Positions 6,615 to 61,778 of a stretch of DNA of 64,000 bases are shown in pieces. This DNA comes from Candidatus Omnitrophota bacterium (GTDB lineage Bacteria; Omnitrophota; Gorgyraeia; Gorgyraeales; Gorgyraeaceae), in the NCBI GenBank assembly GCA_042572045.1, contig JBHPFI010000002.1:92245-156244 (forward strand), read 5' to 3'. The notes under the pieces were generated by a model that did no database searches, was not told the origin of the DNA, and saw only the letters and a program-made list of their open reading frames with translations. The stretch's first letter is position 1. Every line of letters begins with the position of its first letter. The position numbers were made by a program, and so were the translations under genes.

Positions 6615-6651
6615 CGTTTGACACTTTCATCATTGACTGATTTGTCAAGTT
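6615..6651 (-). repeat. 37-bp nested TTGACA palindrome element, copy 1
   Basis: cgTTTGACACTTTcaTCATTGACTGATTTGTCAAGTT, about 32/37 match to copy 2. The acr3 stop codon overlaps its last 2 nt. It lies 92 nt upstream of the Rrf2 start. Confidence 0.8.
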
Positions 6652-7720
6652 AGGGATATGAAAATAGATGCTTGGTCTTTAAGCAGACCCTTACCAGCAT
6701 AAGCATGACCGGCACCTCGATCAACACGCCTACCACAGTTGCCAAAGATGCGCCTGAAGACAGGCCAAAAAGGAGTACTGATGTAGCTATTGCTACTTCA
6801 AAATGATTACTTGCCCCGATAAGGGCAGACGGGGCAGCGTCTTTATAGGGAAGTTTTAACCACCGAGCCAGGATATACGTCAAGGCAAATATCAGACAGG
6901 TCTGGATAAAAAGCGGAATTGCGATTAAAAAGATTGTTTGCGGCTCTCGAATAATCAACTCTCCCTTAAAGGAAAATAATAGAATAAGCGTAAAAAGTAA
7001 CGCCGTAATGGAAATCGGCGTCAAGCGATGTAAAAATTTCTCCTTAAACCACTTAATCCCCTTTTTAGCAAGTATCCTTTTCCGCGTATGATATCCTAAA
7101 AGAAGAGGTAGCCCTACATATATCAAGACAGATAAAAGTATTGTCTGCCAGGGAATGGGCATCTTATTAACCCCTAATAACCACCCACCTAAAGGGGCAT
7201 ACAGAAACAGCATGGTTAAAGAATTTATCGCTACCATCACGAGCGTATGGCCGTCGTTACCCTTGGATAAATGTCCCCAGACAAGGACCATGGCCGTACA
7301 GGGCGCTATTCCAAGCAATATGCAGCCGGAAATATACGACCTGTATAATTCTACCTGTGCGCCGCCCTTGACAATCTCAAATCCGGGAAGCAGGCCCTTA
7401 AATAACACGCCAAGAAACAATGTGGATATGGCAAGCATGGAGAATGGCTTAATACACCAGTTTACAAACAAGGTAAGCATAACAGGCTTCGGGGTCTTTC
7501 CTGCCTTGACAACCTCGGAAAAATCGATCTTTACCATAATCGGGTACATCATAAAAAAGAGGCATATCGCAATCGGAACCGAAACTTGATAAAAAGAGAA
7601 TTTATCTAATGTAAGCGCGACCCCTGGGAAAAGCTTGCCCAATAAAATCCCCAGACCTATACAGACAATTACCCATAGCGTTAAGTATTTCTCAAAAAAG
7701 CCTAAATTTCGCTCTTCCAT
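6650..7720 (-). CDS. acr3: arsenite efflux transporter, ACR3 family
   Basis: About 356 aa and 10 TM. ATG at 7720 is preferred over GTG at 7723 (GGAGAGG RBS). It forms a TGATG overlap with the upstream GIY-YIG gene. Confidence 0.85.
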
Positions 7721-7977
7721 CACCCTCTCCTTTTTGTGTTGCAGGAAAATAGAGTAACCTTTTTATTTTTAGTCCAACTTTTAATCTGGGCTTCTCTTTT
7801 TTGGGCCTTGGATCTATTTGTGTAGTTTTCTTTATAAAGCAGCCTGACTGGTCGGCGGATTCGAGTATAGCTTCCGCCATCACCAGAATTATGTTCTTTT
7901 ATTCTACGATGTATATCAGTAGTGCTGCCCGTGTAAAGACTGCCGTCTCGGCAGCGGATTATGTAGACGTACCACAT
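7720..7977 (-). CDS. GIY-YIG nuclease-domain protein (small stand-alone type)
   Basis: 85 aa. [23 protein letters not shown] matches the GIY-x10-YIG pattern. Confidence 0.8.
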
Positions 7978-8104
7978 GTCTTGTCCTTATTTATGGTGGT
8001 TTGACGCGCTCCTCGCTTCGTTCGTCACTTTCTCACGTCGAGGGAATATCTTCACCCTATTATCTCTTCGATGGCTCGTGACAGCTCCAACCTTTGAAGA
8101 TTAG

Positions 8105-10042
8105 CTAAAACATTGTTTTTACGCTAAACAAAATTGTCCTCCCCGAGAGAGGATAACCTTCCTCTTCTTGGTAATTTCTATCAAAGATATTTTCTATTGA
8201 GATACTGCCTTTCCAATGTTTGAGAAAGTTTTGAGAGAGTTTTGTATTCCAGACAAAATATCCGCCTAACTCATGCTGAACATTACTGCTATCGTAATAG
8301 TGACGTCTTCCAGTATATGCACCCAGAAGATCAAAGGATAGGCCAAAATCTGTAATACAGCTAAAATCAATATCGAGTTTATGCTTAGGGACATAAGGAA
8401 GCTCTTCTTCGGTCCTTCCTAAAAAGGATGGATCCTTGTCACTGGCATCAAGGTAGGTATGCGTTAATCTTCCGGAAAGATATTCGCCTATTTTTGTATA
8501 GATGCTGGTTTCAAACCCCTTAAATATTGACTTGGAGATATTTAAATATTGATCATTCCTGCTTGCCCGGTCTATCAGATCCTTTACATCATTATAGAAA
8601 TAACTCCACTCAAGAGTTGCCTTTTTTCTAAAATCACATCTTATACCTGCCTCGTAATTCACATTCTCCTGCTCCTTAAGATTGGGGTTGCCGGATGTAT
8701 TACTAAACACTTGATTCATCGTAGGAAAACGGGTCCTTTTTGATACTGAAGAATAAATCGAGATCTCTGGATTTAAAAGATATTCAAGGGAAAACATCGG
8801 ATTAAAAGAATCAACGGAACTCCCTTTTTGATTAGTAGCAGTCTTTATCTGATCAAACAGATCATAGCTCATACCTACTAAAAAAGACAAGCTCTCGTTA
8901 ATATCAATGGTGTCCTCAAGGCCAAAGGAATAGGTGTGTATTGAATAGGTCTCCCACGGCTCATCAGAATCGTCTTGCTCTCTATGTACATCTCTTTTGA
9001 AATTAACCGAACTCTTTAAGGAATGTACCTCGCCAGGAGTGAAGCCGAAGTATATACTCCCCCCCATCGCATACTCATCATAAATGCTTGTCCAGGAGGA
9101 ACCAGCATTTTGAGTTGTATATGTATTATCATCATATGCGTTTATCGTATTATCATATTTATCATAATAGACCCTGCCTTTAGCCGAAAGACTCTCTGTT
9201 ATATTGAATTCATCAGCGAGAGCGACCATCCACCTCTTCCATTCTGTAAAACGCCAATATCTTGGATTAGTGGAAGAAACATCAGGTGGAATCCCTTTCT
9301 TATTATCAATATAATTAAAAAACACAGTGGGGTCATGCCTTTCCAAGCCATCTAATCCCAACTTAAAAGACAAGGCGTCTTTTTCATAGAAACTGTTATC
9401 ACGAAGACCCCCATCTTCGTTAGGCATTGCCTCAAACTCCTTGCTTAACTCGAATCCATCCGACTCCCTATGGCTGCCTGAAAAGTACAAGCTAAGATTT
9501 TCAGTCCTAGCCCCGGTATTTAATACATAATGCTCTGTGTCCCGGTCTGAAAACTCACCACTTAACTCTACATGAGGACTCTTGCCAGGCTTTTTTGTAA
9601 CAATATTAATCACGCCCCCCATGGTGTTGGCGCCATAGAGAGGCGAGATAGAATTCTTGATAACCTTGATCTTTGAAACATTTTCTACAGGTATCTGATC
9701 TAGGTCTACGTAACCGAAGAATGGACTTGCTATCGGAATCCCATCCAATAAAATAAGCACCTTGTCCTGATTAAAACCCCTGATCTTAACATAGGGCTCA
9801 TTCTTTGGACCTACTGTAACCCTTACGCCAGGAATAAAATCTAGCGCCTGGTCTACTGTTTGCGCATTCTTTGATTCTATATCTTGAGAAGTAACTTCAG
9901 TGATATAAGGGACGCCAAGACCCTCCTGATCACCGGAAATCACTATCTCTCCTAAATCAAAAACAGTTTCTTCTTCAGCTAAAGAAGAAACCGGTAATAA
10001 AAAAATGAAAATTAGCGCAAAGAAGATTTTTCTTAGAACCAT
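8105..10042 (-). CDS. TonB-dependent outer-membrane receptor
   Basis: 645 aa with a signal peptide, a plug domain (DGIPI..) and a terminal aromatic residue F. Confidence 0.85.
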   Translation of the reverse strand: MVLRKIFFALIFIFLLPVSSLAEEETVFDLGEIVISGDQEGLGVPYITEVTSQDIESKNAQTVDQALDFIPGVRVTVGPKNEPYVKIRGFNQDKVLILLDGIPIASPFFGYVDLDQIPVENVSKIKVIKNSISPLYGANTMGGVINIVTKKPGKSPHVELSGEFSDRDTEHYVLNTGARTENLSLYFSGSHRESDGFELSKEFEAMPNEDGGLRDNSFYEKDALSFKLGLDGLERHDPTVFFNYIDNKKGIPPDVSSTNPRYWRFTEWKRWMVALADEFNITESLSAKGRVYYDKYDNTINAYDDNTYTTQNAGSSWTSIYDEYAMGGSIYFGFTPGEVHSLKSSVNFKRDVHREQDDSDEPWETYSIHTYSFGLEDTIDINESLSFLVGMSYDLFDQIKTATNQKGSSVDSFNPMFSLEYLLNPEISIYSSVSKRTRFPTMNQVFSNTSGNPNLKEQENVNYEAGIRCDFRKKATLEWSYFYNDVKDLIDRASRNDQYLNISKSIFKGFETSIYTKIGEYLSGRLTHTYLDASDKDPSFLGRTEEELPYVPKHKLDIDFSCITDFGLSFDLLGAYTGRRHYYDSSNVQHELGGYFVWNTKLSQNFLKHWKGSISIENIFDRNYQEEEGYPLSGRTILFSVKTMF

Positions 10043-10647
10043 CTAGCTATAGCTAAAAACCAAAGAGTAAGCGTGACAAAAGATACGCTACCAGTTGCTA
10101 TCCTTGACTTAAATTCAAAGGGATTGACCATCCCCTTCTTAAGCAACTGGCCAAAATAAAAAGCGAGAGGGACTACTACAAAATTGCCCAATGCAGCCAA
10201 AGAACCGCTTATCCCTACATAACGAACGACCTTTGGAAGCCCTTCTTGAATCCAGTAATGATAACGGAACAGATAGGTAATCGTTAACGCGAAGAGCATA
10301 TATCCTAAGTAAGTAGCGATTAAGCCGATAATGGCCCTATTCTTGATCTTTGAAAAATTCAGGACTAAATCATAAGAGAGGCCTAAAAGAAAAATACCCA
10401 AAAGATGGCAGGCAAAAAAGGGTGTATTCAAGAATTTGTAAAGCATAGCTATAGAGCCAATAAACGTAGCCGACCACCTATAAGGCAGATAGATTCTTGC
10501 AATAGTCAGAATCATAAAGGCAATGAGAGTCAGAGGAACTGATGCGCTATGAGTGGGGACACTATACAAAAATCCGCCCAGCGAGGCTTCGCAAGCGCCC
10601 CAAAGACTACCAAAAAACAAGATCCCCAATAAATAAGCCTTTTTCAT
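10033..10647 (-). CDS. integral membrane protein, unknown function
   Basis: 204 aa, about 6 TM. Overlaps the receptor start by 10 nt and mobB by 4 nt. Confidence 0.5.
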   Translation of the reverse strand: MKKAYLLGILFFGSLWGACEASLGGFLYSVPTHSASVPLTLIAFMILTIARIYLPYRWSATFIGSIAMLYKFLNTPFFACHLLGIFLLGLSYDLVLNFSKIKNRAIIGLIATYLGYMLFALTITYLFRYHYWIQEGLPKVVRYVGISGSLAALGNFVVVPLAFYFGQLLKKGMVNPFEFKSRIATGSVSFVTLTLWFLAIARWF

Positions 10648-11914: not shown

Positions 11915-12489
11915 ATATTTCGCAAATCCTCTGGGCTGTTGATATTTATAAATGAAGTTGATTCTTCCTTTTCTGCTTTTACATATTTACAATTAACCTG
12001 GGTTAAAAGATTCGCCATGGAAAAATCTCGCCGTCTTATCGCATTCTCTAGACTGGCGATAGTCGCCTTGGAGTAAACAGCGTGCAAAGGCTCTAGGCCT
12101 CTATCACTACAGGGGACAACGCAATCAGCCTGATCCTCCTTTGCAACATCTAATAATCTTACGATTAACTCGTTATGCAAAAAAGGCATATCGCAGGCCA
12201 CAAAAAAGGCCTTGGGATTTACGATTGCCTTTAGGCCTGTGTAGATACCACCTAATGGACCGCAGTCCTTTACTACATCCTCGACTATCTTAATATCTTT
12301 AAATTCGGAAAATTTATCTTTATCATCAGTTACAATAAATATTTTGTCAAAAATCGAGCTAAACACATCTAAAATAATATCGATAATCCTTTTGCCATTG
12401 ACTCTAATAAATGGCTTGGGAGAACCCATTCTGCTACTTTTTCCGCCCGCTAAGATAACTCCTGAAAAAGAGTTACGCGCATTTCCCAT
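11896..12489 (-). CDS. mobA: molybdenum cofactor guanylyltransferase MobA
   Basis: 197 aa. The LAGGKSSRMG motif is present. Confidence 0.8.
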   Translation of the reverse strand: MGNARNSFSGVILAGGKSSRMGSPKPFIRVNGKRIIDIILDVFSSIFDKIFIVTDDKDKFSEFKDIKIVEDVVKDCGPLGGIYTGLKAIVNPKAFFVACDMPFLHNELIVRLLDVAKEDQADCVVPCSDRGLEPLHAVYSKATIASLENAIRRRDFSMANLLTQVNCKYVKAEKEESTSFININSPEDLRNIWKSIY

Positions 12490-12490
12490 A

Positions 12491-15160
12491 TCATTTCCTT
12501 AGCTTTTTTATTTGAACTGCGCAGACTTTGGTTTCAGGGATTTTAGCTACCGGATCCATAGCGGAGTTTGTGATGACATTTGTCGGGCTCTCTGAAAAAT
12601 GGAAAGTCATAGATACTACCCCCGGCGGACAAATATCCGTCAATTTTGTTCTGACCTTGATCTTGCCGCGACGGGAAATGATCTGGACTATTTCTCCGTC
12701 ATCAATCCCATGGCAAGCTGCATCCTTTGGATTAATATTCAATAATTCTTGAGGGTTTAGCGCATCTAATCCTTTCACCCTCCGCGTCAAAGTGCTCGTA
12801 TGAAAAAGATAGAGGCTGCGATCGGTTGTCAAAATTAAAGGGTATTCCTTATCCGGGCATTCAGCAGGAGCTCTATATTTTAAAGGTATAAATTTACCTT
12901 TTCCGTTTTTGGTGGCAAACTTCACGGCATGGAGGAATTGTGTACCGGGATGTTCCGAAGAAACGCAAGGCCATTGAAGTCCGATGTCTTCTATACGAGC
13001 ATACGATATCCCCTGATAGCTCGGTGTAAGTAAGGCAATCTCGTCCATAATCTCGCGGGGGTGCGTAAAATCAAACCCTTTAGCCTTAAGCCTTTTAGCA
13101 ATTTCGCAAATTATCCACCAGTCTGGTTTTGTTCCATTAATCGGATCTATTGCCTTGTGCACCCGTTGAATGCGCCTTTCGGTGTTGGTATAAGTGCCGT
13201 CTTTTTCTGCAAAACTTGCAGCAGGTAAAACTACATCCGCCAATTTCGCGGTCTCTGATAGAAATAGATCCTGGGCTACAAAAAATTCAAGTCTTTTTAA
13301 CGCCTTTTCAACATGTCTGGAATTTGCCTCGCTTAAAATCGGATTCTCACCCATTAAATAGAGCATCTTGATCTTTCCATTATATATAGCATCGGATATC
13401 TCAAGATGTGTCAGGCCTATTTTATCTGACAAGCTAACACCCCAAGCTGTTTCGAATTTCTCTTTCACATCCGCATCATTTACTTTCTGATAACCGGGAT
13501 AGACATTTGGTAAGGCTCCCAGATCACACGCGCCCTGAACATTATTCTGCCCCCTCAAGGGATTAACTCCACTGGAAGGTTTTCCGATATTACCTGTCAG
13601 TAGTGCCAGATTGCTGGTTGCGAGTACATTGTCAGTGCCATGAGTATGCTGCGTAATACCCATCGCATAAAAAATAGCTGCAGGCTTTCTGGTAGCATAA
13701 AAACAGGCTGCTTCGATTATCTTTTTCCTGGGTACATCTGTAGCCTTCTCTACAAAGTCTAGGTCGAAACTATCAAGTGCCTCTTCAAACGCTTGGAAAT
13801 TCTCGCAATTCTTCTCTATAAAAGGTTTATCGATCAGCCCTTTTTCAACAATGACACGCATTATACCCATAAGCAGCGCTACATCACTACCCGGTCGGTG
13901 CTGTAGAAAGATATCAGCATGCCGACATAGATCAATTTCTTTGGGATTAGCTACGATAAGCTTTGCGCCGTTTTGCACGGCCTCCTTTATTTTAAGGGCG
14001 ATTACCGGATGCGCAGCTGTAGTGTTTGTACCTATAGCCAAGATACATGCCGCGCGACTAATTTCACTAATAGAGTTCGTCATTGCGCCGCTTCCAAGAC
14101 TCTGTACTAAGCCAGCAACTGTAGGCGCATGACAAAGCCTTGCGCAATGGTCAATATTATTTGTACCCATTACAGCTCTGGTGAATTTCTGCATAAGGTA
14201 ATTTTCTTCGTTTGCGCACTTAGCAGAAGAAAGTGCAGCAAAATCATCGCTCTTACAATAAGAAAATTTTTCTGCAACTAAATCAAGGGCCTCTTTCCAG
14301 GAGGCCTTCACAAATTTACCTTTTTTCTTAATAAGCGGGGATCTGAGGCGTTCTGGATGATGAATAAAATCAAAACCAAATCTGCCCTTGACACAAAGTA
14401 TACCTCTATTAACAGGGTTATCTCGGTCGCCACTGACACTGACTATTTTTTTATTGCGCACCCATAAATATATGCCACAGCCAACACCACAATAAACACA
14501 GGTGGACCTTACTTTGCTATCTGGGTTCTGAGGTTTCTTCAATCTCAATGCATCTGTAGGACACCTAACGAGGCACTCTCCACATGCTTCGCATATTGAC
14601 TCTTTTAAAGGTTTATTTGCAAATGTGCCGATTGTCGTATCGTATCCGCGGAATAGAAAATCAATAGCGCCTAGTCTCTCGATTTCCTCGCAAGTACGCA
14701 CGCAGATTCCGCATAGTACGCATTTATTCATATCGCGATCAAAGAAAGGGTTTGAACTATCAATGGCATATTTCTTTTTAGATATCCTGAAGCGCTTCAA
14801 GTCTTCTTTTGTAATTCCTACGTACTTGGCAATTTTAAGAAGTTCATTTTGTTTATTTTGATCGCGACGAGCCTTGCCTGAAAGATTATTGACAATAAGC
14901 AATTGTGTAGACAATCGACGTACCTTATCGACCTCAGTGCTACGAGTCTTAACGACCATACCTTCTTGGATAGGAGTATGACAGGAAACAGTAAGTCCTT
15001 TCCCTTTAACATCTACCATGCATAACCTGCACACGCTAACAGGTTTTAGATCAGGATGATAACAAATATGAGGAATATAGATATTATTACTAAGAGCTGC
15101 CTCTAATATACTCATACCCTCTTTTAGTTGTATTTTTTTGTTATCAATAGTTATATTCAT
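12491..15160 (-). CDS. fdhA: formate dehydrogenase catalytic subunit (Mo/W-bisPGD, Cys type) with N-terminal 2Fe-2S/4Fe-4S domains
   Basis: 889 aa and uninterrupted. The active-site region HCARLCHAP has Cys where Sec-type enzymes have U. Confidence 0.9.
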   Translation of the reverse strand: MNITIDNKKIQLKEGMSILEAALSNNIYIPHICYHPDLKPVSVCRLCMVDVKGKGLTVSCHTPIQEGMVVKTRSTEVDKVRRLSTQLLIVNNLSGKARRDQNKQNELLKIAKYVGITKEDLKRFRISKKKYAIDSSNPFFDRDMNKCVLCGICVRTCEEIERLGAIDFLFRGYDTTIGTFANKPLKESICEACGECLVRCPTDALRLKKPQNPDSKVRSTCVYCGVGCGIYLWVRNKKIVSVSGDRDNPVNRGILCVKGRFGFDFIHHPERLRSPLIKKKGKFVKASWKEALDLVAEKFSYCKSDDFAALSSAKCANEENYLMQKFTRAVMGTNNIDHCARLCHAPTVAGLVQSLGSGAMTNSISEISRAACILAIGTNTTAAHPVIALKIKEAVQNGAKLIVANPKEIDLCRHADIFLQHRPGSDVALLMGIMRVIVEKGLIDKPFIEKNCENFQAFEEALDSFDLDFVEKATDVPRKKIIEAACFYATRKPAAIFYAMGITQHTHGTDNVLATSNLALLTGNIGKPSSGVNPLRGQNNVQGACDLGALPNVYPGYQKVNDADVKEKFETAWGVSLSDKIGLTHLEISDAIYNGKIKMLYLMGENPILSEANSRHVEKALKRLEFFVAQDLFLSETAKLADVVLPAASFAEKDGTYTNTERRIQRVHKAIDPINGTKPDWWIICEIAKRLKAKGFDFTHPREIMDEIALLTPSYQGISYARIEDIGLQWPCVSSEHPGTQFLHAVKFATKNGKGKFIPLKYRAPAECPDKEYPLILTTDRSLYLFHTSTLTRRVKGLDALNPQELLNINPKDAACHGIDDGEIVQIISRRGKIKVRTKLTDICPPGVVSMTFHFSESPTNVITNSAMDPVAKIPETKVCAVQIKKLRK

Positions 15161-17497: not shown

Positions 17498-17545
17498 ATT
17501 ATACACCCAAATAAAAACCCCATGCAACTTTTAAGGAGATTTTTT
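17498..17545 (-). promoter_or_regulatory. hairpin/promoter module upstream of the FDH operon
   Basis: Minus strand reads AAATCTCCTTAAAAGTTGCATGGGGTTTTTATTTGGGTGTATAAT. That is TTGCAT (17522-17527) -N18- TATAAT (17498-17503) with a TG extension. It belongs to the same family as the modules at 20832, 29397, 36763 and 39053. Confidence 0.55.
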
Positions 17546-17679: not shown

Positions 17680-19515
17680 TTATTTTGATTGTGCGCTACG
17701 GCTCACTCGCTTACGATCTACTTCTGCTAAATGCAATTTCCGGAGCCTTATATACTTGGGAGTTATCTCAACCAATTCATCATCCTCAATAAACTCAAGA
17801 GCAAACTCAAGGGTAATTTGCCGCGGAGGTATAAGCGCAATCGCGTCATCACTTCCTGAAGCGCGCATATTAGTTAATTTCTTTCCACGTAAGGCGTTTA
17901 CAACAATATCGGTCCCTTTGTTGTTTACACCAACAATCATCCCCTCATATAGCTTTTCTCCTGGTTTAACAAAAACCTCACCACGTGCCTGTAAATTATA
18001 AAGCGCATACGCCACCGCATCACCGCATCCATGTGAAATGAGAACACCGCTTTGACGTGTAGGCATATCTCCTTTATAGGTCTGATATTCAAGGAAATTT
18101 TGGTACATGATGCCGCTACCTCGGGTCATCATAAGAAACTCGCTTCTAAACCCAATTAATGCCCTTGAGGCAATAACAAATTCCATACGGATAGTGCCGG
18201 AAGATGTTGTCTTTAGGTCGCGCATTTGAGCCTTGCGAACTCCAAGCTTCTGCATAACAACGCCCTGATGCTCATCTTCCACCTCGATTATCACCTCTTC
18301 AACAGGCTCGAGCGTTTGACTGCCCATTTTCTTCAAAATAACCTGCGGTATGGAGACCTCCATCTCATACCCTTCACGACGCATTGTTTCAATAAGAATA
18401 GCAAGGTGCAGTTCACCACGACCTGAAACCTTTAACCGCTCAGTTCCCGCAATCTCCTCGACCTTGATGCCAACATTGATCATAGCCTCATGCTCAAGAC
18501 GCTCCCGTATATGTCGTGATGTTAAAAATCTGCCGCCATCCTTGCCTGAAAGAGGGCTTGTATTATGAGAAAAATTCATAGAGATCGTGGGCTCATCTAT
18601 CTTAATAGTAGGTAATCCTTTTGGCTCACTAATACACGTAAGCGTCTCTCCAACCTCTACGCCTTCTATACCGGAAATTGATATAATATCTCCTGCTATA
18701 GCCTCATTGGCCTCAATACGAATTAGTCCACGATACTTCATAATCTTAGTTGCCTTGCCTCTGGCAACAGTCCCATCGCGTTTCACAAGCGCCACGGGAT
18801 CCCCAACGCGGACAGCCCCATGAAAAACCCTCCCTATAGCAATTCGCCCAACATAAGAGTCATAATCAAGCATTGTAATCAGCATCTGAAAAGGCAGATC
18901 AGGATTAGCTATCGGCGGCAATACCCTATGCAGGATAGTCTCTAAAAGAGGCTTCATAGAGTCTCTCGGCTCATCAAGATCAAGGGTCGCGTAACCATCC
19001 TTTCCTGAAGCGTAAACAATCGGAAAATCAAGCTGTTCATCAGAAGCGTTCAGCTCACAAAAAAGATCAAATGTCATATCCGCCACTTCATCCGGGCGGG
19101 CATGAGGACGATCAAGCTTATTTATCACAAGTATTGGTTTTAAATGCAACTCGAGCGACTTCTTTAAAACAAATTTAGTCTGCGGCATAGGGCCTTCAAA
19201 AGCATCAACAAGAAGAAGTACGCCGTCAACCATCTTAAGAATACGTTCGACCTCACTGCCAAAATCAGCATGCCCAGGCGTATCAACAAGATTGAATTGT
19301 ACCCCTTTATATTGGAGAGAAGCGTTTTTAGACAGAATAGTAATACCTCTTTCTTTCTCAAGAGGATTTGAGTCCATTACGGCAACCTCACCCTCTTTAA
19401 ACTCATAGGCGCCTGTATATTTAAGGAGGGCATCTACAAGGGTAGTTTTCCCATGGTCAACGTGCGCTATAATCGCGAGGTTCCTTACATCTTTTCTTCT
19501 TTTTTGATTTGGCAT
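17680..19515 (-). CDS. typA: translational GTPase TypA/BipA
   Basis: 611 aa. AHVDHGKTT, DTPGH and NKLD G-motifs. Confidence 0.95.
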   Translation of the reverse strand: MPNQKRRKDVRNLAIIAHVDHGKTTLVDALLKYTGAYEFKEGEVAVMDSNPLEKERGITILSKNASLQYKGVQFNLVDTPGHADFGSEVERILKMVDGVLLLVDAFEGPMPQTKFVLKKSLELHLKPILVINKLDRPHARPDEVADMTFDLFCELNASDEQLDFPIVYASGKDGYATLDLDEPRDSMKPLLETILHRVLPPIANPDLPFQMLITMLDYDSYVGRIAIGRVFHGAVRVGDPVALVKRDGTVARGKATKIMKYRGLIRIEANEAIAGDIISISGIEGVEVGETLTCISEPKGLPTIKIDEPTISMNFSHNTSPLSGKDGGRFLTSRHIRERLEHEAMINVGIKVEEIAGTERLKVSGRGELHLAILIETMRREGYEMEVSIPQVILKKMGSQTLEPVEEVIIEVEDEHQGVVMQKLGVRKAQMRDLKTTSSGTIRMEFVIASRALIGFRSEFLMMTRGSGIMYQNFLEYQTYKGDMPTRQSGVLISHGCGDAVAYALYNLQARGEVFVKPGEKLYEGMIVGVNNKGTDIVVNALRGKKLTNMRASGSDDAIALIPPRQITLEFALEFIEDDELVEITPKYIRLRKLHLAEVDRKRVSRSAQSK

Positions 19516-19739: not shown

Positions 19740-20240
19740 TTAAGCACGTTTTTTTCTACGTGCAAAAAATGACTTCTTCTTTTTAACGGGCTTCTGCCTT
19801 TTCTCAAGCCTCTTTTTATCGGAATAACGTTCCCGGGAAAAATCTCTTTGTTCGGGCTTATTATTCCGGTTTGCGTTAAACAGGTTGCCTTTTTTGCGCT
19901 TTGAAAAACAATCCTTGCAGTATACCGGACGGTCTCCGCTGGGTTTAAAAGGGACTTCGCATTCTTTGCTGCAGTCTGCGCAAATAACCCGAGTATAAGT
20001 TCTTTCCCTGGGGCCACTGTCTTGTTTTCCCCTGTCATGGCGATGAAAGTGATTGAAGCGCTGGGAAGGCTTTTGGGAATAGCTTTTCTCAAAAGGCCTT
20101 TTTGAAGACTGGCTGATTAAGATATCCAGCTTCTTCTCCATGGCACTCAACTGCTGCTGCACTTTATTAATGCAGTCAGCTACACCCGGCTCATCCTGCG
20201 GCGCGACTAATAAACTTTTGTGTTTAAAACGCTTTTTCAC
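19740..20240 (-). CDS. basic zinc-ribbon protein (CxxC-x16-CxxC), long paralogue
   Basis: 166 aa with a GTG start. Core is ICADCSKECEVPFKPSGDRPVYCKDCFSKRK, flanked by K/R-rich tails. Confidence 0.6.
   Translation of the reverse strand: MKKRFKHKSLLVAPQDEPGVADCINKVQQQLSAMEKKLDILISQSSKRPFEKSYSQKPSQRFNHFHRHDRGKQDSGPRERTYTRVICADCSKECEVPFKPSGDRPVYCKDCFSKRKKGNLFNANRNNKPEQRDFSRERYSDKKRLEKRQKPVKKKKSFFARRKKRA
19894..19985 (-). repeat. 92-bp perfect direct repeat, copy A (zinc-ribbon core)
   Basis: Identical over 92/92 nt to 20447-20538, checked base by base. Confidence 0.9.
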
Positions 20241-20430: not shown

Positions 20431-20601
20431 TTAACGCCTTTCGTTCTTGCGCTTTGAAAAACAATCCTTGCAGTATACCGGACGGTCTCCGCTGGGTTTA
20501 AAAGGGACTTCGCATTCTTTGCTGCAGTCTGCGCAAATCGCCTTGTGCATCTCCCGTGACCCTCCGCCGTATCCACCACCACTACCTCCTTGATATCCCA
20601 T
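20431..20601 (-). CDS. Gly-rich zinc-ribbon protein, short paralogue (56 aa, absent from ORF track)
   Basis: ATG at 20601 with a GGGGGT RBS. Translation is MGYQGGSGGGYGGGSREMHKAICADCSKECEVPFKPSGDRPVYCKDCFSKRKNERR*. Confidence 0.6.
   Translation of the reverse strand: MGYQGGSGGGYGGGSREMHKAICADCSKECEVPFKPSGDRPVYCKDCFSKRKNERR
20447..20538 (-). repeat. 92-bp perfect direct repeat, copy B
   Basis: Identical to 19894-19985. Confidence 0.9.
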
Positions 20602-41618: not shown

Positions 41619-42188
41619 CTAACCTATATTTACTTCGTTGTAAGCTCTTTTTATGCCCTCTAGATTAGCATTTGTCTTTTCTTCGCCAATCTTCTTTGAA
41701 AACTTTGCCTTTACCCTTTCAGAAAGCTGATCTATCGTAACAAGCGCATTTACCTTTAATAATGCCCCGAGCATAGGCATATTTGGCATAGGCAGCTTAA
41801 GCGTCTCAAGCGCAATCTTTGTAGCGTCAACCGTACCAACCTTGCCCTTTTTAAAATTTACTGCCTTTCGGATGTCTTCCGGAGATTTATCTGTGTTTAC
41901 CAAAAGTATACCATCATCACCCAGGCCTTCTGTAACATCAATAGCGCTGATAAGCGTAGGGTCTATTACCACTACTATCTCTGGATTTGTAACAGAAGAA
42001 TGTATATATATGGGCTTTTCGCTTATACGGTTAAAAGCCCTCATCGGAGCACCAGCCCTTTCAGGGCCATACTCAGGAAATGACTGTATGTATTTCCCTG
42101 TATCAAGGGTTGCCTCTCCTAAAAACTGAGAAGCTGTTTTTGCACCTTGCCCGCCTCTTCCATGCCATCTAACTTCTACCATTGCCAT
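41619..42188 (-). CDS. porG: pyruvate:ferredoxin oxidoreductase gamma subunit
   Basis: 189 aa. GRGGQG motif. Confidence 0.9.
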   Translation of the reverse strand: MAMVEVRWHGRGGQGAKTASQFLGEATLDTGKYIQSFPEYGPERAGAPMRAFNRISEKPIYIHSSVTNPEIVVVIDPTLISAIDVTEGLGDDGILLVNTDKSPEDIRKAVNFKKGKVGTVDATKIALETLKLPMPNMPMLGALLKVNALVTIDQLSERVKAKFSKKIGEEKTNANLEGIKRAYNEVNIG

Positions 42189-42246
42189 AAAAATTTCCTC
42201 TTCTGAATTAAAAATGTCTTACTATTTTATAATCTTGGACCTTATC

Positions 42247-42304
42247 TGTCAAGTTTTAAGAAGCGCTAACTTGACACTTTTGTCATTGACTGATTTGTCA
42301 AGTT
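42247..42304 (-). repeat. 37-bp nested TTGACA palindrome element, copy 2 (consensus) plus an extra half-site
   Basis: 42268-42304 reads AACTTGACACTTTTGTCATTGACTGATTTGTCAAGTT. An extra TGTCAAGTT sits at 42247-42255. The recR stop overlaps the last 2 nt, and the element is 80 nt upstream of the porG start. Confidence 0.85.
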
Positions 42305-42902
42305 ACATGGAGCTTCGGCCTTCAAGGGCCTTTATAAGGGTTGCCTGGTCTATATAATCTAAATTTTCCCCTACTGGTATGCCATACGCGATACGGCTTA
42401 TTTTAACATTAAATGGCTTGAGCTCTTTTGAAAGGTATAAAGCTGTTGTCTCTCCTTCAGCATTGGAATCAGTAGCAATTATCGCCTCTTTTACCTTATC
42501 CGCTTTAACGCGTGATATGAGCTCTTTTACTCTTAAGTCATCCGGGCCTATTCCGTCCAAAGGCGCTATTGCTCCAAAAAGCACATGATATGTGCCTTTA
42601 TAATGGCCTGATTTCTCTATCAAAATTAAATCCTTGGGTTCTTCTATCACGCATACAACAGTCTTGTCCCTCCTGGGGTCACTGCAAATCCTGCAAAATT
42701 CGGTTTCGCTTAGATTGCCGCATTTTTCGCAAAATCTTACTAGCTCCCTGAGGTTCTTTATGGCCAAAGAAAATTTCTCCATGTCTTTTTTAGGCGACTT
42801 TAACACATGAAATGCGAACCTCTCGGCAGTCTTTGCGCCTACCCCGGGCATCTTTTTAAAATGTTCTATTAATTCATGCATCGATTTCGTATATGCGCTC
42901 AT
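42303..42902 (-). CDS. recR: recombination protein RecR
   Basis: 199 aa. C4 zinc finger (CEKCG...CRIC) plus Toprim. Confidence 0.95.
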   Translation of the reverse strand: MSAYTKSMHELIEHFKKMPGVGAKTAERFAFHVLKSPKKDMEKFSLAIKNLRELVRFCEKCGNLSETEFCRICSDPRRDKTVVCVIEEPKDLILIEKSGHYKGTYHVLFGAIAPLDGIGPDDLRVKELISRVKADKVKEAIIATDSNAEGETTALYLSKELKPFNVKISRIAYGIPVGENLDYIDQATLIKALEGRSSM

Positions 42903-48153: not shown

Positions 48154-48262
48154 GACCTCTCCGAGTTTATGGGCCTACCACGCCAGGTAGCTATTATTTA
48201 TTATTATTCTAACTTCGCAATGAGTCGAAATCAAGGAGTTTAAAAAATCAGAGAAAAACCTT

Positions 48263-48361
48263 AACTTGACAAATCAGTCAATGACAAAAGTTGTCCACCC
48301 TCGTTTATTATTCGGTGGATAATCCACCTCTGGAGGGTGACTCAATTTCATATGTCAAGTT
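48263..48361 (+). repeat. 37-bp nested TTGACA palindrome element, copy 3 (opposite strand, split by a 44-nt nested hairpin)
   Basis: 48263-48290 reads AACTTGACAAATCAGTCAATGACAAAAG, the reverse complement of the copy-2 core. The matching arm TGTCAAGTT is displaced to 48353-48361. It lies upstream of the plus-strand gene at 48428. Confidence 0.75.
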
Positions 48362-48427
48362 AATGCAGAATAGCTAGAAATAAATTGTTTTGACTATTTG
48401 TAGGTTTAAGGCTAAAATAGGCTTTAC

Positions 48428-51596: not shown

Positions 51597-51797
51597 ACAC
51601 CCCTCCTAAAAACAACCTAAAACTATTTAGCTCCGGATTATGGAAATTCTTTATTGCTGCCGCTTTTTCACGAAGACAAACCAGTAAACCTTCTGTTCGT
51701 TTTGTTATATATAATACTACTGTGGAAAAATATAGACAAGATTAAAATGTATTGCTTAAACTGATTTTTTTACTTTGGGACTAGTAAAGATACATAT

Positions 51798-52286: not shown

Positions 52287-52390
52287 ATATCCCTCCCTGT
52301 TATCTACTTGCGGGTCAATATCCTAGTACAACATTTACCCCGAATTCTTTAGAATTATTATCCGGCTCAACTCCAGCCAAGGGAATGATT

Positions 52391-53167: not shown

Positions 53168-53168
53168 A

Positions 53169-53942
53169 TCATTTCACCAATTCTTTTAAAGGCACTATCT
53201 TTATGCCTTTTGCTTCCAGTTCAGGTATAGAATCTTTTATAACCTGAAGAGTGATTTTCTCGTTATGACCTATCCCTATGGCGCTTCCTTTTTGCGTCGC
53301 TATATAGGATAATTCTTGAATCTGTTTTTTTATATAAGATTCAAAATTTTTAAAATCAGTTTGATCTGTGATGTCCAAAAAAACATCTCTCTCGGCACAT
53401 TTCAACCCTATGCTGCGGGCGACATCCAAACTCACCGAATTAGGTGTCGTCAGGCTATCCAGAAAAAATAATTTTCTCTGCTTTAATTCGGTCAGGATAA
53501 TATTCATCACGCTTTCGTCTTCAGTGGCCTTTGAACCTTGATGATTCGAAACGCCTATAAGCCCAACAACGTTCCTGATATCCTTTTCCAATATAGAAAG
53601 TATCTCATTTTTTTTCATGCCAGACCGAATAGTATTAGCCTCCACTGCTCTATTAACTTTGGACTCCATGGGTAAATGTAAAATTATATCATGTATTTTG
53701 CCATTTTTCCTGACCTCCGTGGCAATATCATGAGAATAGCGTAGATTCGGCAATATCGACACGGTAATAGGCCTGTCTATCTGAAAAACCAAATCGAGAT
53801 TCTTTCGATTATAACCCCAATCGTCAATCACAAACGCAACAAGCCCTTTGGATTTATCGCCTGGCTTACTGTGTTTCGTCAGAACTATCAAACCTATTAT
53901 TACAAATATAATTATCCCTATTATAACTACATGTCTCTTCAC
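53169..53942 (-). CDS. divergent polysaccharide deacetylase (YibQ-like)
   Basis: 257 aa with a GTG start (GAGAGGGG RBS). FVIDDWG...HLPME...NHQGS. Confidence 0.75.
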   Translation of the reverse strand: MKRHVVIIGIIIFVIIGLIVLTKHSKPGDKSKGLVAFVIDDWGYNRKNLDLVFQIDRPITVSILPNLRYSHDIATEVRKNGKIHDIILHLPMESKVNRAVEANTIRSGMKKNEILSILEKDIRNVVGLIGVSNHQGSKATEDESVMNIILTELKQRKLFFLDSLTTPNSVSLDVARSIGLKCAERDVFLDITDQTDFKNFESYIKKQIQELSYIATQKGSAIGIGHNEKITLQVIKDSIPELEAKGIKIVPLKELVK

Positions 53943-53958
53943 CTAAACACCCCTCTCT

Positions 53959-53995
53959 AACTTAACACTTTAGTCATTGACTGAATTGTCAAGTT
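53959..53995 (-). repeat. 37-bp nested TTGACA palindrome element, copy 4
   Basis: AACTTaACACTTTaGTCATTGACTGAaTTGTCAAGTT (34/37). It lies 17 nt upstream of the start at 53942 and 4 nt after the stop of the HD gene. Confidence 0.85.
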
Positions 53996-53998
53996 ATA

Positions 53999-54583
53999 TC
54001 AACGCTTAAATTCGCTCAAGCTCTCCCACCATTCATTAAGGTCTGCTGTTTTTGCTATTGACCATAGGTTTTTGGCGGTTTTTGTCCTAAGGAAACACGG
54101 TGCTTTTTTCATAAATTTGATTGCCTCTTTAAATCCATGCCCTTGGTACTCTCTCGCCTGAATCAGACATTCTAAAATATCAGCATCTCTTGCGATAATA
54201 GCTTCCTTCGTATCTTGCTTCCTGTACTCTTTATGCATGCCGGACAGCTCGCCTTTAATACCGACGGGCAAAGAATCTATCTGTTCTTTAAACGCCTTGT
54301 CTTCTGCCTTCAGAAGTTCGATATAACGTTGCGACATCTTATGTAAATCACTTATGCGGGCTTCATGTATGTCATTAAAGAGTGTCATCAGTAACACTTT
54401 ATAAGAAGAGGCCTTTTCCCTACAAGCTATGATATAGCCTATAACCGCGCATCTGAAACTATGCTCTGCTACTGTCTCTGTATCCTTTACGCCTAAAACC
54501 CACCATCCAGAACGCCTGACGCGCTTAAGCATTCCTGCTTCACATATAAAATTCACTAACTTCTTATCCTCTTTTTTGTTCAT
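53999..54583 (-). CDS. HD-domain phosphohydrolase (YfbR-like)
   Basis: 194 aa. AEHS...HD-type (NDIHEARISD) motifs. Confidence 0.75.
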   Translation of the reverse strand: MNKKEDKKLVNFICEAGMLKRVRRSGWWVLGVKDTETVAEHSFRCAVIGYIIACREKASSYKVLLMTLFNDIHEARISDLHKMSQRYIELLKAEDKAFKEQIDSLPVGIKGELSGMHKEYRKQDTKEAIIARDADILECLIQAREYQGHGFKEAIKFMKKAPCFLRTKTAKNLWSIAKTADLNEWWESLSEFKR

Positions 54584-54584
54584 C

Positions 54585-55346: not shown

Positions 55347-55361
55347 CTCTTTTTTATCTGC

Positions 55362-56108: not shown

Positions 56109-56133
56109 AGTATTTCAAAGCGCTCCCCTTATA

Positions 56134-56958: not shown

Positions 56959-56993
56959 TTAAATCTTTCTTCATAATGACAATAAGATATTTT

Positions 56994-57503: not shown

Positions 57504-57567
57504 TTAGATTTTAAAATCCTTGGAGCGGGTATTGGAGCATAAAATTAGGGGGCTGTAGACCTGCCGC

Positions 57568-59649
57568 TTATCGTGTATTCTTTGAATGATTTCTTTCAGC
57601 GCGCTCTTCAAATCTTCTTGCCTTATCTTCATTCCCAACCGTTCTATATAATTCTGCCATATTCCGTAACACATTTACAACATCAGGATGGTCCGGGCCA
57701 AGTGCTTTTTCGCTTATTTCCAAGGAGCGCTTGTAAAGGGTTTCGGCATCAGCATATTTCTCTTGAGCTCTATAAAGCGCCGCCAGGTTATTCAAGGATA
57801 TCGCTACCTCAGGATGATATTCACCAAGTGCCTTTTTATCTATTTCTAAGGCGCGTTTATAGAGGGGCTCGGCGTCAGCGTACCTGGCCTGGTCATGATA
57901 AACTGCTGCCAGATTATTCAAGGACGTAGCTACATCAGGGTGGCTTTTACCAAGAATGCTTTCGTCTATTTCTAATGCCCATTTGTAAAGGGTTTCGGCA
58001 TCAGCATATCTAGACTGAATCCTATAAATTGCTGCCAGATTATTTAATGACGTAGCTACATTCAGGTGGTTTCTGCCAAAAACCTTCTCATCTATCTCCA
58101 GGGCCCGTTTGTAGAGAGGTTCGGCATCGCTATATCTAGACTGATCGCGATAAAGCGTCGCCAGATTCTTTAGAAAAGTTGCCACATATGGATGGTATGG
58201 CCCAAGCGTCTTTTCGTTTATCTCTAAGGCGCGCTTGTATAACTTCTCAGACTCAGCAAACTTTCCTTGAGCTTTATAAAGCGCGGCAAGGTTATTCATG
58301 TCACTTGCCAGATCTGGGTGATTTTTACCAAGTGCCTTTTCATCTATCGCCAGGGCGCGCTTGTAGAGAGGTTCGGCTTTGTTAAACTTGCCTTGGTTAT
58401 GATAAAGTGCTGCTAGATTGTTCAAGTCACTAGCCAGATTGGGATGATCTTTGCCAAGGACCTTTTCATCTATCGCCAGGGCCTGCTTGTAGAGAGGCTC
58501 GGCGTCGCTATATTTATTCTGGTCGTGATAAAGCGCTGCCAAATTATTCAAGGCCGTAGCCACATCTGGATGCTCACTGCCAAGAGTTTTTACCTTTATT
58601 TCCCATGCGCGCTTGTAGAGAGGCTCGGCTTTATTGTATTTACCGTGATCGTGATAGAATGCCGCAAGATTATTCAGGTCGCTTGCTAAACCTGGATGGT
58701 TTTTACCAAGAATCTTTTCATCTATTTCCAAGGCACGCTTGTAAAGGGGCTCAGCTTCAGCGTACCAGTCTTGGACATGATAAAGTGCTGCTAGATTATT
58801 CAGGTCGCTTGCAACGTCTGGATGAGATGCCCCAAGCGCCTTCTCGTCTATTTCCAGGGCACGTTTATAGAGAGGCTCGGCTTCAGCGTATTTACCCTGA
58901 TCTTTATAGAGAGCTGCCAGATTATTCAGCTCGCTTGCTACGCTCGGGTGCTCTTTGCCAAGGGCCTTCTCATCTATTGCCAGGGCCTGTTTGTAAAGGG
59001 GCTCGGCGTCGGCATATCTACCTTGATCATGATAGAGTAAGGCTAAATTACTTAGATCGCTTGTCACATCTGGATGATCTTTGCCAAAGGCCTTTATCTT
59101 TATTTTTTGCGCCTCTTTGTAAAGGGATTCGGCATCGTCATACCTGCCCTGTTCATGATAAAGCAATGCCAGATTATTCAACGATATAGACACGTCCGGA
59201 TGATCTTTACCAAGGGTTTTCTTGTCTATCTCCAGCACGCGTTTGTAGAGAGGTTCGGCGTCTTTGTATCTGGACTGGGCATGGTAAAGCGCTGCTAGAT
59301 TATTGAAGTCGTTTGCCAGGTCTGGATGATTCTTGCCAAGCGACTTCATTTTTATTGTCAATGCGCGGCTGTAGAGGGGTTCGGCGTCTTTGTATCTGGT
59401 CTGGGCATGGTAAAGCAATGCCAGATGGCTCAAGGAGGTAGCAACAGCAAGATGGTCTGTTCCAAATTGTTTCTCTGCTGTCTTTAGAGCATCTTCCGCC
59501 AACTTTATCGCCTCAGAATATTTACCTTGCTCATAAAGCTTTGCAACCTTTTTAAGCAATGCCTCTTGTGAAGGCTCTTCGGCGCGAAGACAAGCATTAA
59601 ATAATATGACTAACGTAATCACTAACCCAATTTTTATCAATGTCTTCAT
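57568..59649 (-). CDS. secreted tetratricopeptide-repeat protein (about 15 tandem 42-aa units)
   Basis: 693 aa. The unit [41 protein letters not shown] repeats with 126-nt periodicity. Confidence 0.85.
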   Translation of the reverse strand: [693 protein letters not shown]

Positions 59650-59703
59650 GCTATTAAGTCTATTGGTCTTACATAAATTCGGAATAATGCCGCCCTTCTA
59701 AAC

Positions 59704-61722
59704 CTATATCTTCCCAATATTATATAAGTCCTCTGTTGCCTCTACTACAAGAGGGTCAAAATAAATACCCTTATATCTTCTAATCTCCTCCATGGCCTTT
59801 TCCCTGCTTAATGCCGGACTAAAAGGCCTTTCCGACAACATAGCGTCAAAGGCATCTACCACCCTTATTATTCGAGAAAACAAATGTATGTCTTCTTCCT
59901 TCTGACCATCAGGATAACCTGAGCCGTCATAATTCTCATGATGATGCAGTATGCCTGAGCAGATATCCTCGCCAAGCCATTCCTGAAAAGGGCCTATAAT
60001 CTTTATCCCATTTATAGGGTGCTCCTTTATCTTTGCCCACTCTTTTTTATCTAAAGGTCCTGGCTTGAGAAGAATAGAATCAGGGATGCTTATCTTGCCT
60101 ACATCGTGTAGCTGAGCGGCTAAGTTGAGTTCGGACAAACCATTGGAAAAAATACGTAAATCTCTCTCTAATTTGTCACCTACAAGAGCGCTGTAACGAG
60201 CCACCCTGTCAGTATGGCCGCGCGTATAGCGGTCTTTAGCCTCTATAGCGCTGATTAATATATTTTGAGAGGCCACTATAAGATGGACCTTTTCTTCCTT
60301 GAGCATAAAGCTATAAATAGCCCTGGCGATATGGTTAGACAACGAGAAGAATATTTCTAAATCTTCATCAGTAATTATCTCGCTAGCGTTTAGCTTCTGG
60401 CCTATATTTATTACGGCCAGGACCTCTCCCTCGCAAACACTGGGCACGCTTATCTCTGCGCCCAGCTTTCTCATCTCCCTGATCACATTAATAAGTGGCT
60501 CTTTTTGATCAAAGGGAATCTCTTTAGATGCAAGCTGATATTCGATTTTACTGCGGACCAAAGGCCTTCTTCTTTTGCATAGCTCCCTCACCAAAGCATT
60601 ATCTCTGCTCAAGGCTATACCCGAAACGATTTTCTTTCTTTTTTTGCTACGCGTAAGGCTTTTCTCAAGGACAAACCTTTTTTTCGGAATATTCCAGATA
60701 AATATCCCTACGTAGTCCAGCCTGACCAAGCTGGTTAGATCACGCGTTATATAGATAAGAAGCTCTTTTATATTACGGACCACGGAAATCCTCTGTGCCT
60801 CTTTTCTGAGAAGAGGGCGATAAGCAAATTTTCTAGAAAGCTCGTTTTCTTCTATATGTCTTACAAAGTTTATAAACCAGAATAAACCCAGGCTAGCCAG
60901 AAAAGAGACAGAAACAGGAAATATTATCCAGTTTTCACCCAAGAGGCTGGATAAATAAGGGCCGATCCAAAAAGTTCCTGTGTAGACAAGTCCCATAGAA
61001 ACCATAAACCCTAAGGTTATCAAAGATAACCGTTTTATTATAATCTCAAGGTCTAACAGTCTATAGCGGTTAATATTGTAAGTGGTAGATACAATGAAAA
61101 ATATCACCGGTATAAGCCCAAACGGGTACATCTCTACGCCATAACTAGGGAGATAATCTACTGTACCCAAGTAAGCAATTGGGAAGGTTATCAAAAAATA
61201 CTTGATTCTCTTTTTATTAAAAGGGGACTCTGTTTCCTTATATCTCTTGTATAGCTCTATTAAAGTCAAACTAACTGGAATTATCCATAAGCAAAGGAAG
61301 ATGTTATGCATAGTAAAATTTACCTGAGGATAGTATCCCCAGAAAAATTTTCTAGCGCCTGTAAAAAAATGATCGCTTCTCACTATAAAAAGCAGGGAAA
61401 CAACAGAAAAAATATAGAATAAACGAACCAGTTTCTTTCTTTTTAGATTCAAAAACGAAATTATAAAGTGATAGGTGGCAGGGGGTATAAAAACCACACC
61501 GCAGTAAGCGAATTTTGACCAGGGTATGACGAAAGAAATATCAGTAATATGAGAAACTATAAGGTATGCGAAATCCCTTAAGGAAAGGGATAATGCCAGT
61601 ATAAAAAAACTTCTGTTAATCTTCGATTTTTTATTCTTCAGTAAGGCGAATAAGCCTACAGAAAAGGCAAGAACAAAGACGACCAAGCGAGGTATCGAAT
61701 AAATATTTAGTTCTACACCCAT
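59704..61722 (-). CDS. membrane-bound HD-GYP c-di-GMP phosphodiesterase-type protein (multi-TM + GAF-like + HD-GYP)
   Basis: 672 aa. HDVGK and HHENYDGSGYP motifs. Confidence 0.8.
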   Translation of the reverse strand: MGVELNIYSIPRLVVFVLAFSVGLFALLKNKKSKINRSFFILALSLSLRDFAYLIVSHITDISFVIPWSKFAYCGVVFIPPATYHFIISFLNLKRKKLVRLFYIFSVVSLLFIVRSDHFFTGARKFFWGYYPQVNFTMHNIFLCLWIIPVSLTLIELYKRYKETESPFNKKRIKYFLITFPIAYLGTVDYLPSYGVEMYPFGLIPVIFFIVSTTYNINRYRLLDLEIIIKRLSLITLGFMVSMGLVYTGTFWIGPYLSSLLGENWIIFPVSVSFLASLGLFWFINFVRHIEENELSRKFAYRPLLRKEAQRISVVRNIKELLIYITRDLTSLVRLDYVGIFIWNIPKKRFVLEKSLTRSKKRKKIVSGIALSRDNALVRELCKRRRPLVRSKIEYQLASKEIPFDQKEPLINVIREMRKLGAEISVPSVCEGEVLAVINIGQKLNASEIITDEDLEIFFSLSNHIARAIYSFMLKEEKVHLIVASQNILISAIEAKDRYTRGHTDRVARYSALVGDKLERDLRIFSNGLSELNLAAQLHDVGKISIPDSILLKPGPLDKKEWAKIKEHPINGIKIIGPFQEWLGEDICSGILHHHENYDGSGYPDGQKEEDIHLFSRIIRVVDAFDAMLSERPFSPALSREKAMEEIRRYKGIYFDPLVVEATEDLYNIGKI

Positions 61723-61741
61723 AATGTAAGATTATACTCCT

Positions 61742-61778
61742 AGCTTGACACTTTTGTCATTGACTGATTTAGTCCTTA
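61742..61778 (-). repeat. 37-bp nested TTGACA palindrome element, copy 5 (one arm degenerate)
   Basis: AgCTTGACACTTTTGTCATTGACTGATTTaGTCcttag. The PilZ stop codon (61769-61771) lies inside it. It is 20 nt upstream of the HD-GYP start, and ATGACA-N18-TATAAT can be read from its centre. Confidence 0.75.

Follow-up and report, generated by a model that had tools for sequence, protein, structure and literature searches.

Miniature inverted-repeat transposable element (MITE)-like repeats of bacteria are non-coding, shorter than 200 bp and A+T-rich, and they have terminal inverted repeats, TA ends and target duplications (Delihas 2008, PMC2229807). They can exist in more than one form, as in the Correia repeats, where the 107-bp and 155-bp forms differ by a 50-bp internal segment (PMC2229807). 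Repetitive extragenic palindromes (REPs) are found mainly downstream of coding regions, between co-directional genes (Di Nocera 2013, PMC3733652). Here we describe a palindromic element of 37 to 41 bp, with one longer form, that occurs five times in a 64-kb stretch of a Candidatus Omnitrophota contig (JBHPFI010000002.1, positions 92,245 to 156,244; this whole stretch is called the window). The element most likely belongs to the known class of small interspersed palindromes and is not a new kind of system. Omnitrophota are uncultured, and to our knowledge neither their mobile non-coding DNA nor their cis-regulatory signals have been described; nothing on palindromic repeats of Omnitrophota was found in the literature. 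Tandem palindromes are also familiar as operators, at which dimer-of-dimers regulators bind, for example at sites of the TetR/QacR type or of the CRP/FNR type. The original prediction, made from the letters of the window, had listed three roles for the element: operator of a global regulator, REP/MITE-like insulator or sigma-factor decoy. The REP/MITE-like role fits best, and the statement that the element is extragenic and is too long and too conserved for a plain promoter is supported by the results below; for the operator-centred interpretation the support is only partial.

Five copies of one repeat

The invariant core CTTTNNTCATTGACTGANTT occurs exactly five times in the window, at positions 6624, 42277, 53968 and 61751 and, on the minus strand, at 48271. 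The five copies thus lie where they had been predicted, and none is expected by chance: not one of 100 dinucleotide-preserving shuffles of the window gave five core copies. The sequence TGTCAAGTT has 7 occurrences in the window, where 0.56 would be expected. Copies 1 to 5, numbered along the window, match the 37-mer consensus at 32, 37, 29, 34 and 29 of the 37 positions, and within consensus positions 10-28 the match rises to 17-19 of 19 in every copy. In gene sense the consensus reads (C)TAACTTGACAAATCAGTCAATGACAAAAGTGTCAAGTTA(G). Its arms are terminal inverted repeats, (C)TAACTTGACA and TGTCAAGTTA(G), with TA in each end; these arms are 10-11 bp long, where 9 bp had been given. Copies 1-4 have arms of this form, and copy 5 has a degenerate left arm. 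With 32% G+C, the element lies below the 35-43% found across the window. It comes in short forms of 37-41 bp and in one long form of 103 bp (copy 3), all copies are single, and no inverted pairs are found in the window. A hidden Markov model (HMM) built from the five copies detected no further, diverged copy there.

The non-palindromic interior (AATCA ... AAAAG) is the same in all copies, and the flanking sequences are unrelated. Because the interior is identical while the flanks are not, the copies, judged by their sequences, stem from one source sequence and did not converge as binding sites. The repeat family is real, well defined and specific to this lineage. The same letters can also be read as two tandem 16-bp palindromes of the form TTGACA-N4-TGTCAA, at positions 4-19 and 19-34, which gives four TTGACA-like half-sites with a 15-bp period.

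Each copy lies in a different gene context, and these contexts are as had been described. Copy 1 (6609..6653, minus strand) is located between an Acr3/SBF gene (6650-7723) and an Rrf2 gene (6122-6523); in gene sense it reads CTAACTTGACAAATCAGTCAATGATGAAAGTGTCAA[ACGA]GTTAG, with a 4-nt insertion in the right arm. Copy 2 (42266..42306, minus strand), between recR (42303-42902) and porG (41619-42188), is identical to the consensus. Copy 4 (53957..53997, minus strand) takes up most of the 56-nt spacer that leads from an HD hydrolase gene (53999-54583) to yibQ (53169-53942), ending 16 nt before the GTG of yibQ and directly before the ribosome-binding site GAGAGGGG. Copy 5 (61740..61780, minus strand) lies in the 46-nt spacer from a PilZ gene (61769-62143) to an HD-GYP gene (59704-61722); its degenerate left arm codes for the last PilZ codons and the stop, and its core and right arm are those of the consensus.

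Copy 3 is the long form (48261..48363, plus strand in gene sense), situated in the divergent region between a pabB fusion gene and a DUF3047 gene. At 29/37 identity it looks like a degenerate copy. It consists of a left arm and core at 48261-48290, an insert of 62 nt and a right arm, TGTCAAGTTAA, at 48353-48363, and when the 62 nt at 48291-48352 are removed the remainder matches the consensus at 37 of 37 positions. Copy 3 is thus a perfect copy that has been split, and the extra half-site formerly assigned to position 48353 is its own displaced right arm. The second such half-site, at 42247, is instead the -35 hexamer of porG, whose promoter is kept in three related loci (L096, L103 and L104). 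The 62-nt insert (48291..48352, plus strand) is itself a nested palindrome, GTCCACCCTC ... GGTGGAT-A-ATCCACC ... GAGGGTGAC; it occurs once in the window and in none of the loci that we fetched. On one strand, its GGTGGAT-A-ATCCACC centre contains the DnaA-box-like sequence TTATCCACC.

Predicted folding differs between the copies. The whole stretch of copy 3 (48261-48363) forms one long hairpin of -33.5 kcal/mol (z -4.1), the outer 11-bp stem of which is made by the arms of the element. Against shuffled sequences, copy 2 (z -4.4), copy 4 (z -3.7) and the copy found in the related locus L107 (z -3.0; see below) also fold well; this is not the case for copies 1 and 5 (z = -1.05 and -0.9). According to these fold predictions a hairpin is possible, and selection on it is not proven. 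Searches with Rfam 15 gave only four tRNAs above the gathering thresholds in the window and nothing at E <= 1 around copies 2 and 3.

Placement relative to genes, stop codons and promoters

All five copies are located in intergenic DNA, which makes up 12.4% of the window (p about 3e-5). Four copies lie between co-directional genes and one between divergent genes, and the neighbouring genes share no common function. The copies hug the stop codon of the upstream gene and not the promoter of the downstream gene. Copies 1 and 2 contain the upstream stop codon itself (that of Acr3 and of recR, respectively) as the TAA of their left arm, in copy 4 the upstream stop is 3 nt away, and the PilZ stop falls within copy 5. 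All three embedded stop codons of the original prediction were thus recovered. Three of the four co-directional copies (1, 2 and 4) are at most 3 nt from the upstream stop, which is not expected from random placement in the spacers (p about 4e-4).

The distances to the downstream start codons (92, 80, 129, 17 and 20 nt) were reproduced as well, but an assignment of the element to the 5' side of the following genes, as an operator, was not supported. The gap between the end of the element and a sigma-70-like -35 box is 46 nt for Rrf2, 16 nt for porG and 91 nt for DUF3047; no promoter was detected for yibQ (copy 4), and copy 5 overlaps one. The anchoring is to the upstream stop codon instead. 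That the orientation follows the downstream gene is correct as a description, but it carries little information. Nearly all genes of the window are on the minus strand, which four of the five copies share, and any copy that separates two divergent genes, as copy 3 does, will always point at one of them. Moreover, the copy of L107 is inverted relative to yibQ.

Two of the promoters are separate from the repeat. The porG promoter (TTGACA-17-TAAAAT, 42224..42252, minus strand) is the one kept in the relatives. The Rrf2 promoter (TTGACA-16-TATCAT, 6541..6569, minus strand), which follows copy 1 at a distance of 46 nt, has a palindrome of its own and of different sequence, AATGATAC-N7-GTATCATT, that overlaps its -10 box (6541-6563, minus strand). 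This palindrome is a likelier Rrf2 operator than the element and a plausible candidate for the autoregulation of the Rrf2/ferredoxin/hcp/flavodiiron cluster. No -35/-10 pair with a spacing of 16-18 nt is present within any of the copies, and copy 5 alone pairs with a flanking -10 box: its internal ATGACA could serve as the -35 box of a candidate hybrid promoter (61731..61760, minus strand) with an 18-nt spacer and a flanking TATAAT. The 11/12 matches of this promoter are a consensus match only. A terminator-like site, sought as a G+C-rich stem followed by a T-run, was seen at none of the five copies.

Orthologous sites in relatives

Among the proteins of the window, RecR, RlmB and YibQ match those of a Candidatus Omnitrophota metagenome-assembled genome at 100% identity. 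The relatives that we compared share proteins with the window that are about 65-80% identical in amino acids. Between recR and porG the element is absent in all three relatives (L096, L103 and L104-106), and all of them keep the porG promoter, ACTTGACAAAT...TAyAAT. Upstream of yibQ it is absent in four of the five relatives (L111, L112/113, L114 and L115) and present in L107 (GCA_974317405.1). For an operator, the comparison of orthologous intergenic regions that had been proposed as a check gives a mixed picture: at porG the element is found in 0 of 3 relatives although the promoter is kept, and at yibQ in 1 of 5, but there the single copy is kept above the neutral level.

The L107 copy reads ACTTGACACTTTTGACAATGACAGATTTGTCAG and ends about 25 nt before the yibQ start, 7 nt before the ribosome-binding site AAGAGGGG. 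It is placed in the same way as copy 4, abutting GAGAGGGG, but behind a different upstream gene. The HMM matches it on the opposite strand with an E value of about 1e-4. Since it agrees with the inverted form of the consensus at 30/37 positions and with the gene-sense form at 25/37, its interior is flipped relative to yibQ. Inversion of an interior between inverted arms is known as a neutral event in hairpin loops, for instance in plastids. At four-fold degenerate sites in six orthologous genes, the window and L107 are identical at 198/432 positions (46%). Because the yibQ copy is kept in L107 far above this neutral level, some sequence-specific constraint exists; either this copy is under selection or it has been homogenised against a master sequence of the family. 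Another difference at this site is that L107 has, between the HD gene and yibQ (5330-8178), a tRNA, about 2.6 kb of small open reading frames (ORFs) and fragments that resemble tRNA 3' ends, all of which are absent from the window. The window lacks this content, which indicates that the HD-yibQ junction, the site of copy 4, is a rearrangement point.

Wider searches gave little. The exact 20-mer core had six matches in the metagenome contigs of the Joint Genome Institute (JGI), none with arms and thus attributable to chance, but diverged variants such as that of L107 escape an exact search. There were 0 matches of this core in viral contigs. A pattern with 17 specified bases gave, among the matches listed, single chance matches in unrelated genomes of the genome collection. 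Loci L001-L102 were chosen for containing the core and are therefore not valid as a negative control for the HMM.

Comparison with known repeats

In many respects the element resembles the Correia/NEMIS repeats of Neisseria and the RUP repeats of pneumococcus. Like them, it is non-coding, A+T-rich, present in multiple copies and intergenic, adjoining genes, and it has terminal inverted repeats with 5'-TA-3' at both ends. Like them, it also has short and long forms, the difference being an internal segment of about 50-60 bp (62 nt in our case), contains promoter-like hexamers and would form a hairpin if transcribed. The five copies with unrelated flanks in 64 kb agree with the picture of a MITE-like repeat as a dispersed, non-coding element shorter than 200 bp, and copies 1-4 have the TA-ended inverted repeats and the A+T richness that go with it. 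In contrast to these families, the element measures 37-41 bp instead of about 100-160 bp, so that its inverted ends practically abut. A target-site duplication, an empty site or an insertion sequence (IS) with matching ends could not be demonstrated for it, and one of its copies is kept across genera above neutral expectation.

REPs, and the REPIN arrangements that they form, provide the second comparison. An imperfect palindrome of 20-40 bp with a lineage-specific sequence and possible vertical descent is typical of these repeats, and so is an extragenic position, usually directly behind a coding region and between genes that are co-directional or convergent; four of our five copies lie between co-directional genes. 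Unlike REPs, the element has no GTAG or CGTC tag, its stem is A+T-rich and of moderate stability, and its copies are single instead of being arranged in inverted pairs. Neither a REP-associated tyrosine transposase (RAYT) nor another Y1 transposase is encoded in the window. One relative, L108, has at 12158-12852 a gene for a 157-aa Y1 transposase (also found in L109), which matches the REP-associated tyrosine transposase model with 75.7 bits against a cutoff of 80 bits. On either side of this gene are 77-nt inverted repeats, which contain GGGGTGTCCC motifs and are unrelated to the element. As L108 carries a RAYT-like gene with repeats of its own, RAYT-type systems seem to be present in this clade.

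Tandem-palindrome operators share with the element the four inverted half-sites within about 31 bp, the symmetry and, for three copies, the location in a 5' region. The element differs from them in that no fixed promoter geometry, no graded sites and no cognate regulator were found for it. In addition, its spacers are kept as strongly as its half-sites, and it is not kept together with the promoters that it would control.

Weighing the explanations

The explanation that we favour, and to which we give about an even chance of being correct, is that the element is a TA-bounded, MITE/REP-like interspersed palindrome that is tolerated at stop codons, is transcribed as a hairpin and occasionally donates a -35 box. 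We prefer this to an operator because of the identical interior, the TA-bounded inverted termini, the A+T richness and the presence of short and long forms, and because the copies are strictly intergenic, stop-anchored and variable in their geometry to promoters, are present or absent at orthologous sites and have functionally unrelated neighbours. Such an element would be spread in trans by a transposase encoded outside the window and would land on TA; four of the five sites read TAG and one reads TAA. As the element starts with an A, a copy that lands on the TA of a stop codon would restore TAA, so that copies that abut a stop would be harmless and could survive in a compact genome. The copies are probably transcribed together with their neighbours, since no terminator is seen upstream of them. 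Transcribed copies would then fold into a 10-bp stem of about -13 kcal/mol, directly after a stop codon or before a ribosome-binding site. By analogy with REPs and Correia repeats, this hairpin could alter the stability of an mRNA segment, termination or access to the ribosome-binding site, or it could bind a host protein. Liang, Rudd and Deutscher reportedly found in 2015 that REPs near stop codons can affect translation in E. coli. The TTGACA-like hexamers may lend a -35 box to a -10 box that is present by chance, as could be the case in copy 5.

A number of observations weigh against this explanation. The copy count covers only the 64-kb window, this window has no transposase gene, and a full-length IS whose ends match was not seen. 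With 37-41 bp the element is shorter than the bacterial MITEs that have been described, and it carries neither the GTAG nor the CGTC tag of REPs, its ends reading CTAAC and GTTAG. Among the relatives there is no cleanly alignable empty site that would allow filled and absent sites to be compared, and because TA is self-complementary a target-site duplication is indistinguishable from an extension of the palindrome. For the hairpin, an alignment of six sequences gave no covariation beyond that of shuffles (82% of cells paired). Finally, an identity of 30/37 at a neutral rate of 46% has a probability of about 1e-5, and a decaying selfish remnant would not be kept so well. This conservation of the yibQ copy above the neutral level is the best argument for a symmetric protein-binding operator.

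That operator, the main rival, would be bound by a global regulator, as a dimer of dimers on the tandem palindromes, and would control the neighbouring transcription units. We consider it rather unlikely, but it accounts for several features: the symmetric architecture of four half-sites, the presence of copies 1-3 upstream of sigma-70-like promoters, and the persistence of the yibQ copy in L107 behind another upstream gene, where the inversion of the interior would be immaterial to a symmetric binder. In copy 4, moreover, two of the three substitutions raise the symmetry. The placement data speak against an operator, as the distance to the promoter is 46 nt for copy 1, 16 nt for copy 2 and 91 nt for copy 3, a promoter is missing at copy 4, and one is overlapped by copy 5. 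Conservation is as high in the spacer bases as in the half-sites, and no gradation is seen. A regulon normally shows a gradient of site strengths. With up to two mismatches allowed, TTGACANNNNTGTCAA gave 2 weak hits in the window outside the five elements, compared to 3.3 expected in total, and weaker or single-palindrome sites are thus no more frequent than by chance. Three relatives keep the porG promoter without the element and four of the five yibQ relatives do without it, copy 3 is split by 62 nt and yet has not decayed, the flanked genes have no common function, and the palindrome at the -10 box of the Rrf2 promoter is not that of the element. An operator also leaves the link with stop codons and the TA ends unexplained. 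A variant is a host-selected 31-bp double operator, in which the four -35-like TTGACA hexamers would be recognised by a global dimer-of-dimers regulator or by region 4 of the housekeeping sigma factor, acting as an insulator or polymerase sink between neighbouring transcription units that is kept at yibQ across genera; this we regard as unlikely.

Alternatively, the element may be a non-mobile RNA hairpin, an intercistronic module selected for mRNA processing, as a stability barrier or as a modulator of translation termination and of access to the ribosome-binding site, in which transposition plays no part. We judge this to be decidedly unlikely. Copies 4 and 5 make up nearly the whole co-directional spacer, with no promoter or terminator between the genes, and an intact stem is present in copies 2 and 4, in the long form of copy 3 and in the L107 copy. 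Whichever way a palindrome is turned, it forms the same stem, which fits the inversion in L107, and the stem substitutions that are observed are G-U compatible on the sense strand. Against these points stand the lack of covariation beyond shuffles, the two copies (1 and 5) that fold no better than shuffled sequences, a loop sequence that is as conserved as the stem and the absence of a match in Rfam. Copy 3 lies upstream of both divergent promoters and may not be transcribed at all, and the spread of identical copies to unrelated loci would not be explained. It is very improbable that the element acts as a promoter or as a decoy for sigma-70/RNA polymerase, with the TTGACA arms recruiting the polymerase. 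The arms do match the extended -35 context of this lineage, CTTGACAAAT, which is also present at the porG and Rrf2 promoters, and copy 5 provides ATGACA-18-TATAAT, but no -10 box is located 16-18 nt from any of the four internal hexamers on either strand, and a chance flanking -10 box is found in only one of the five copies.

Some other candidates were rejected. The absence of a T-run and the A+T-rich stem rule out an intrinsic terminator, the absence of a -10 box inside the element a complete promoter, and the absence of an Rfam match a known RNA family. The element is not the operator of the adjacent Rrf2 regulator, as the Rrf2 promoter has its own, different palindrome. The mini-ORF MTKVSS* has no ribosome-binding site, and the inverted interior of L107 gives a different peptide. 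An integron attC site or an orphan CRISPR repeat was dismissed because each copy stands singly and is flanked by core genes whose synteny is conserved. The left arm shares a 13-nt identity with the -35 region of porG in L096, but a common origin was discarded: since -35 boxes of this lineage usually stand in the context CTTGACAAAT, the identity reduces to 3 extra matching bases.

If the MITE/REP-like explanation is correct, the element would be an unusually small case of the survival of such repeats in compact genomes, made possible by the regeneration of the stop codon upon insertion. With one copy conserved well above the neutral level in a second genome, a domesticated function is conceivable, either as a hairpin in the mRNA or as a site to which a protein binds. 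A very short, TA-bounded palindrome on stop codons would also be convenient as a marker in strain typing and in checks on the binning of metagenome-assembled genomes.

Other repeats and features nearby

A second repeat family is present in the window at 17507, 20276, 20846, 29411, 30421, 33344, 36777 and 39067, with copies of 38-67 nt each. On the minus strand these form a G+C-rich hairpin (CCCCTTGCAA...TTGCAAGGGG) followed by a T-run. The family is thus an intrinsic terminator that has been reused after many small minus-strand genes, and the genuine terminators of this genome belong to it and not to the element. Fragments that look like tRNA 3' ends (TGGCTCCCC) often follow, and only four tRNAs are called. 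With its lower G+C content (0.35-0.38), the region of 20-39 kb resembles an island of small cassettes. Two copies of a 95-nt direct repeat that are 99% identical to each other are found at 19891-19985 and 20444-20538, 553 nt apart and beside a small zinc-finger ORF. Thirteen tandem 126-nt repeats (57646-59457) lie inside the gene of a 693-aa TPR protein (57568-59649).

An 85-aa GIY-YIG gene of the window (7720-7977) is one gene away from copy 1, and in L108 a GIY-YIG gene (82 aa) lies between 29-nt palindromic direct repeats (ATTTGC...GCAAAT) that are 97% identical, at 18220-18248 and 18882-18910. In L096 (9724-11202), PorB is 492 aa long, compared to 311 aa in the window and in L104, and has a faint LAGLIDADG match; from its sequence, it may be a candidate for an intein or a homing-endonuclease insertion.

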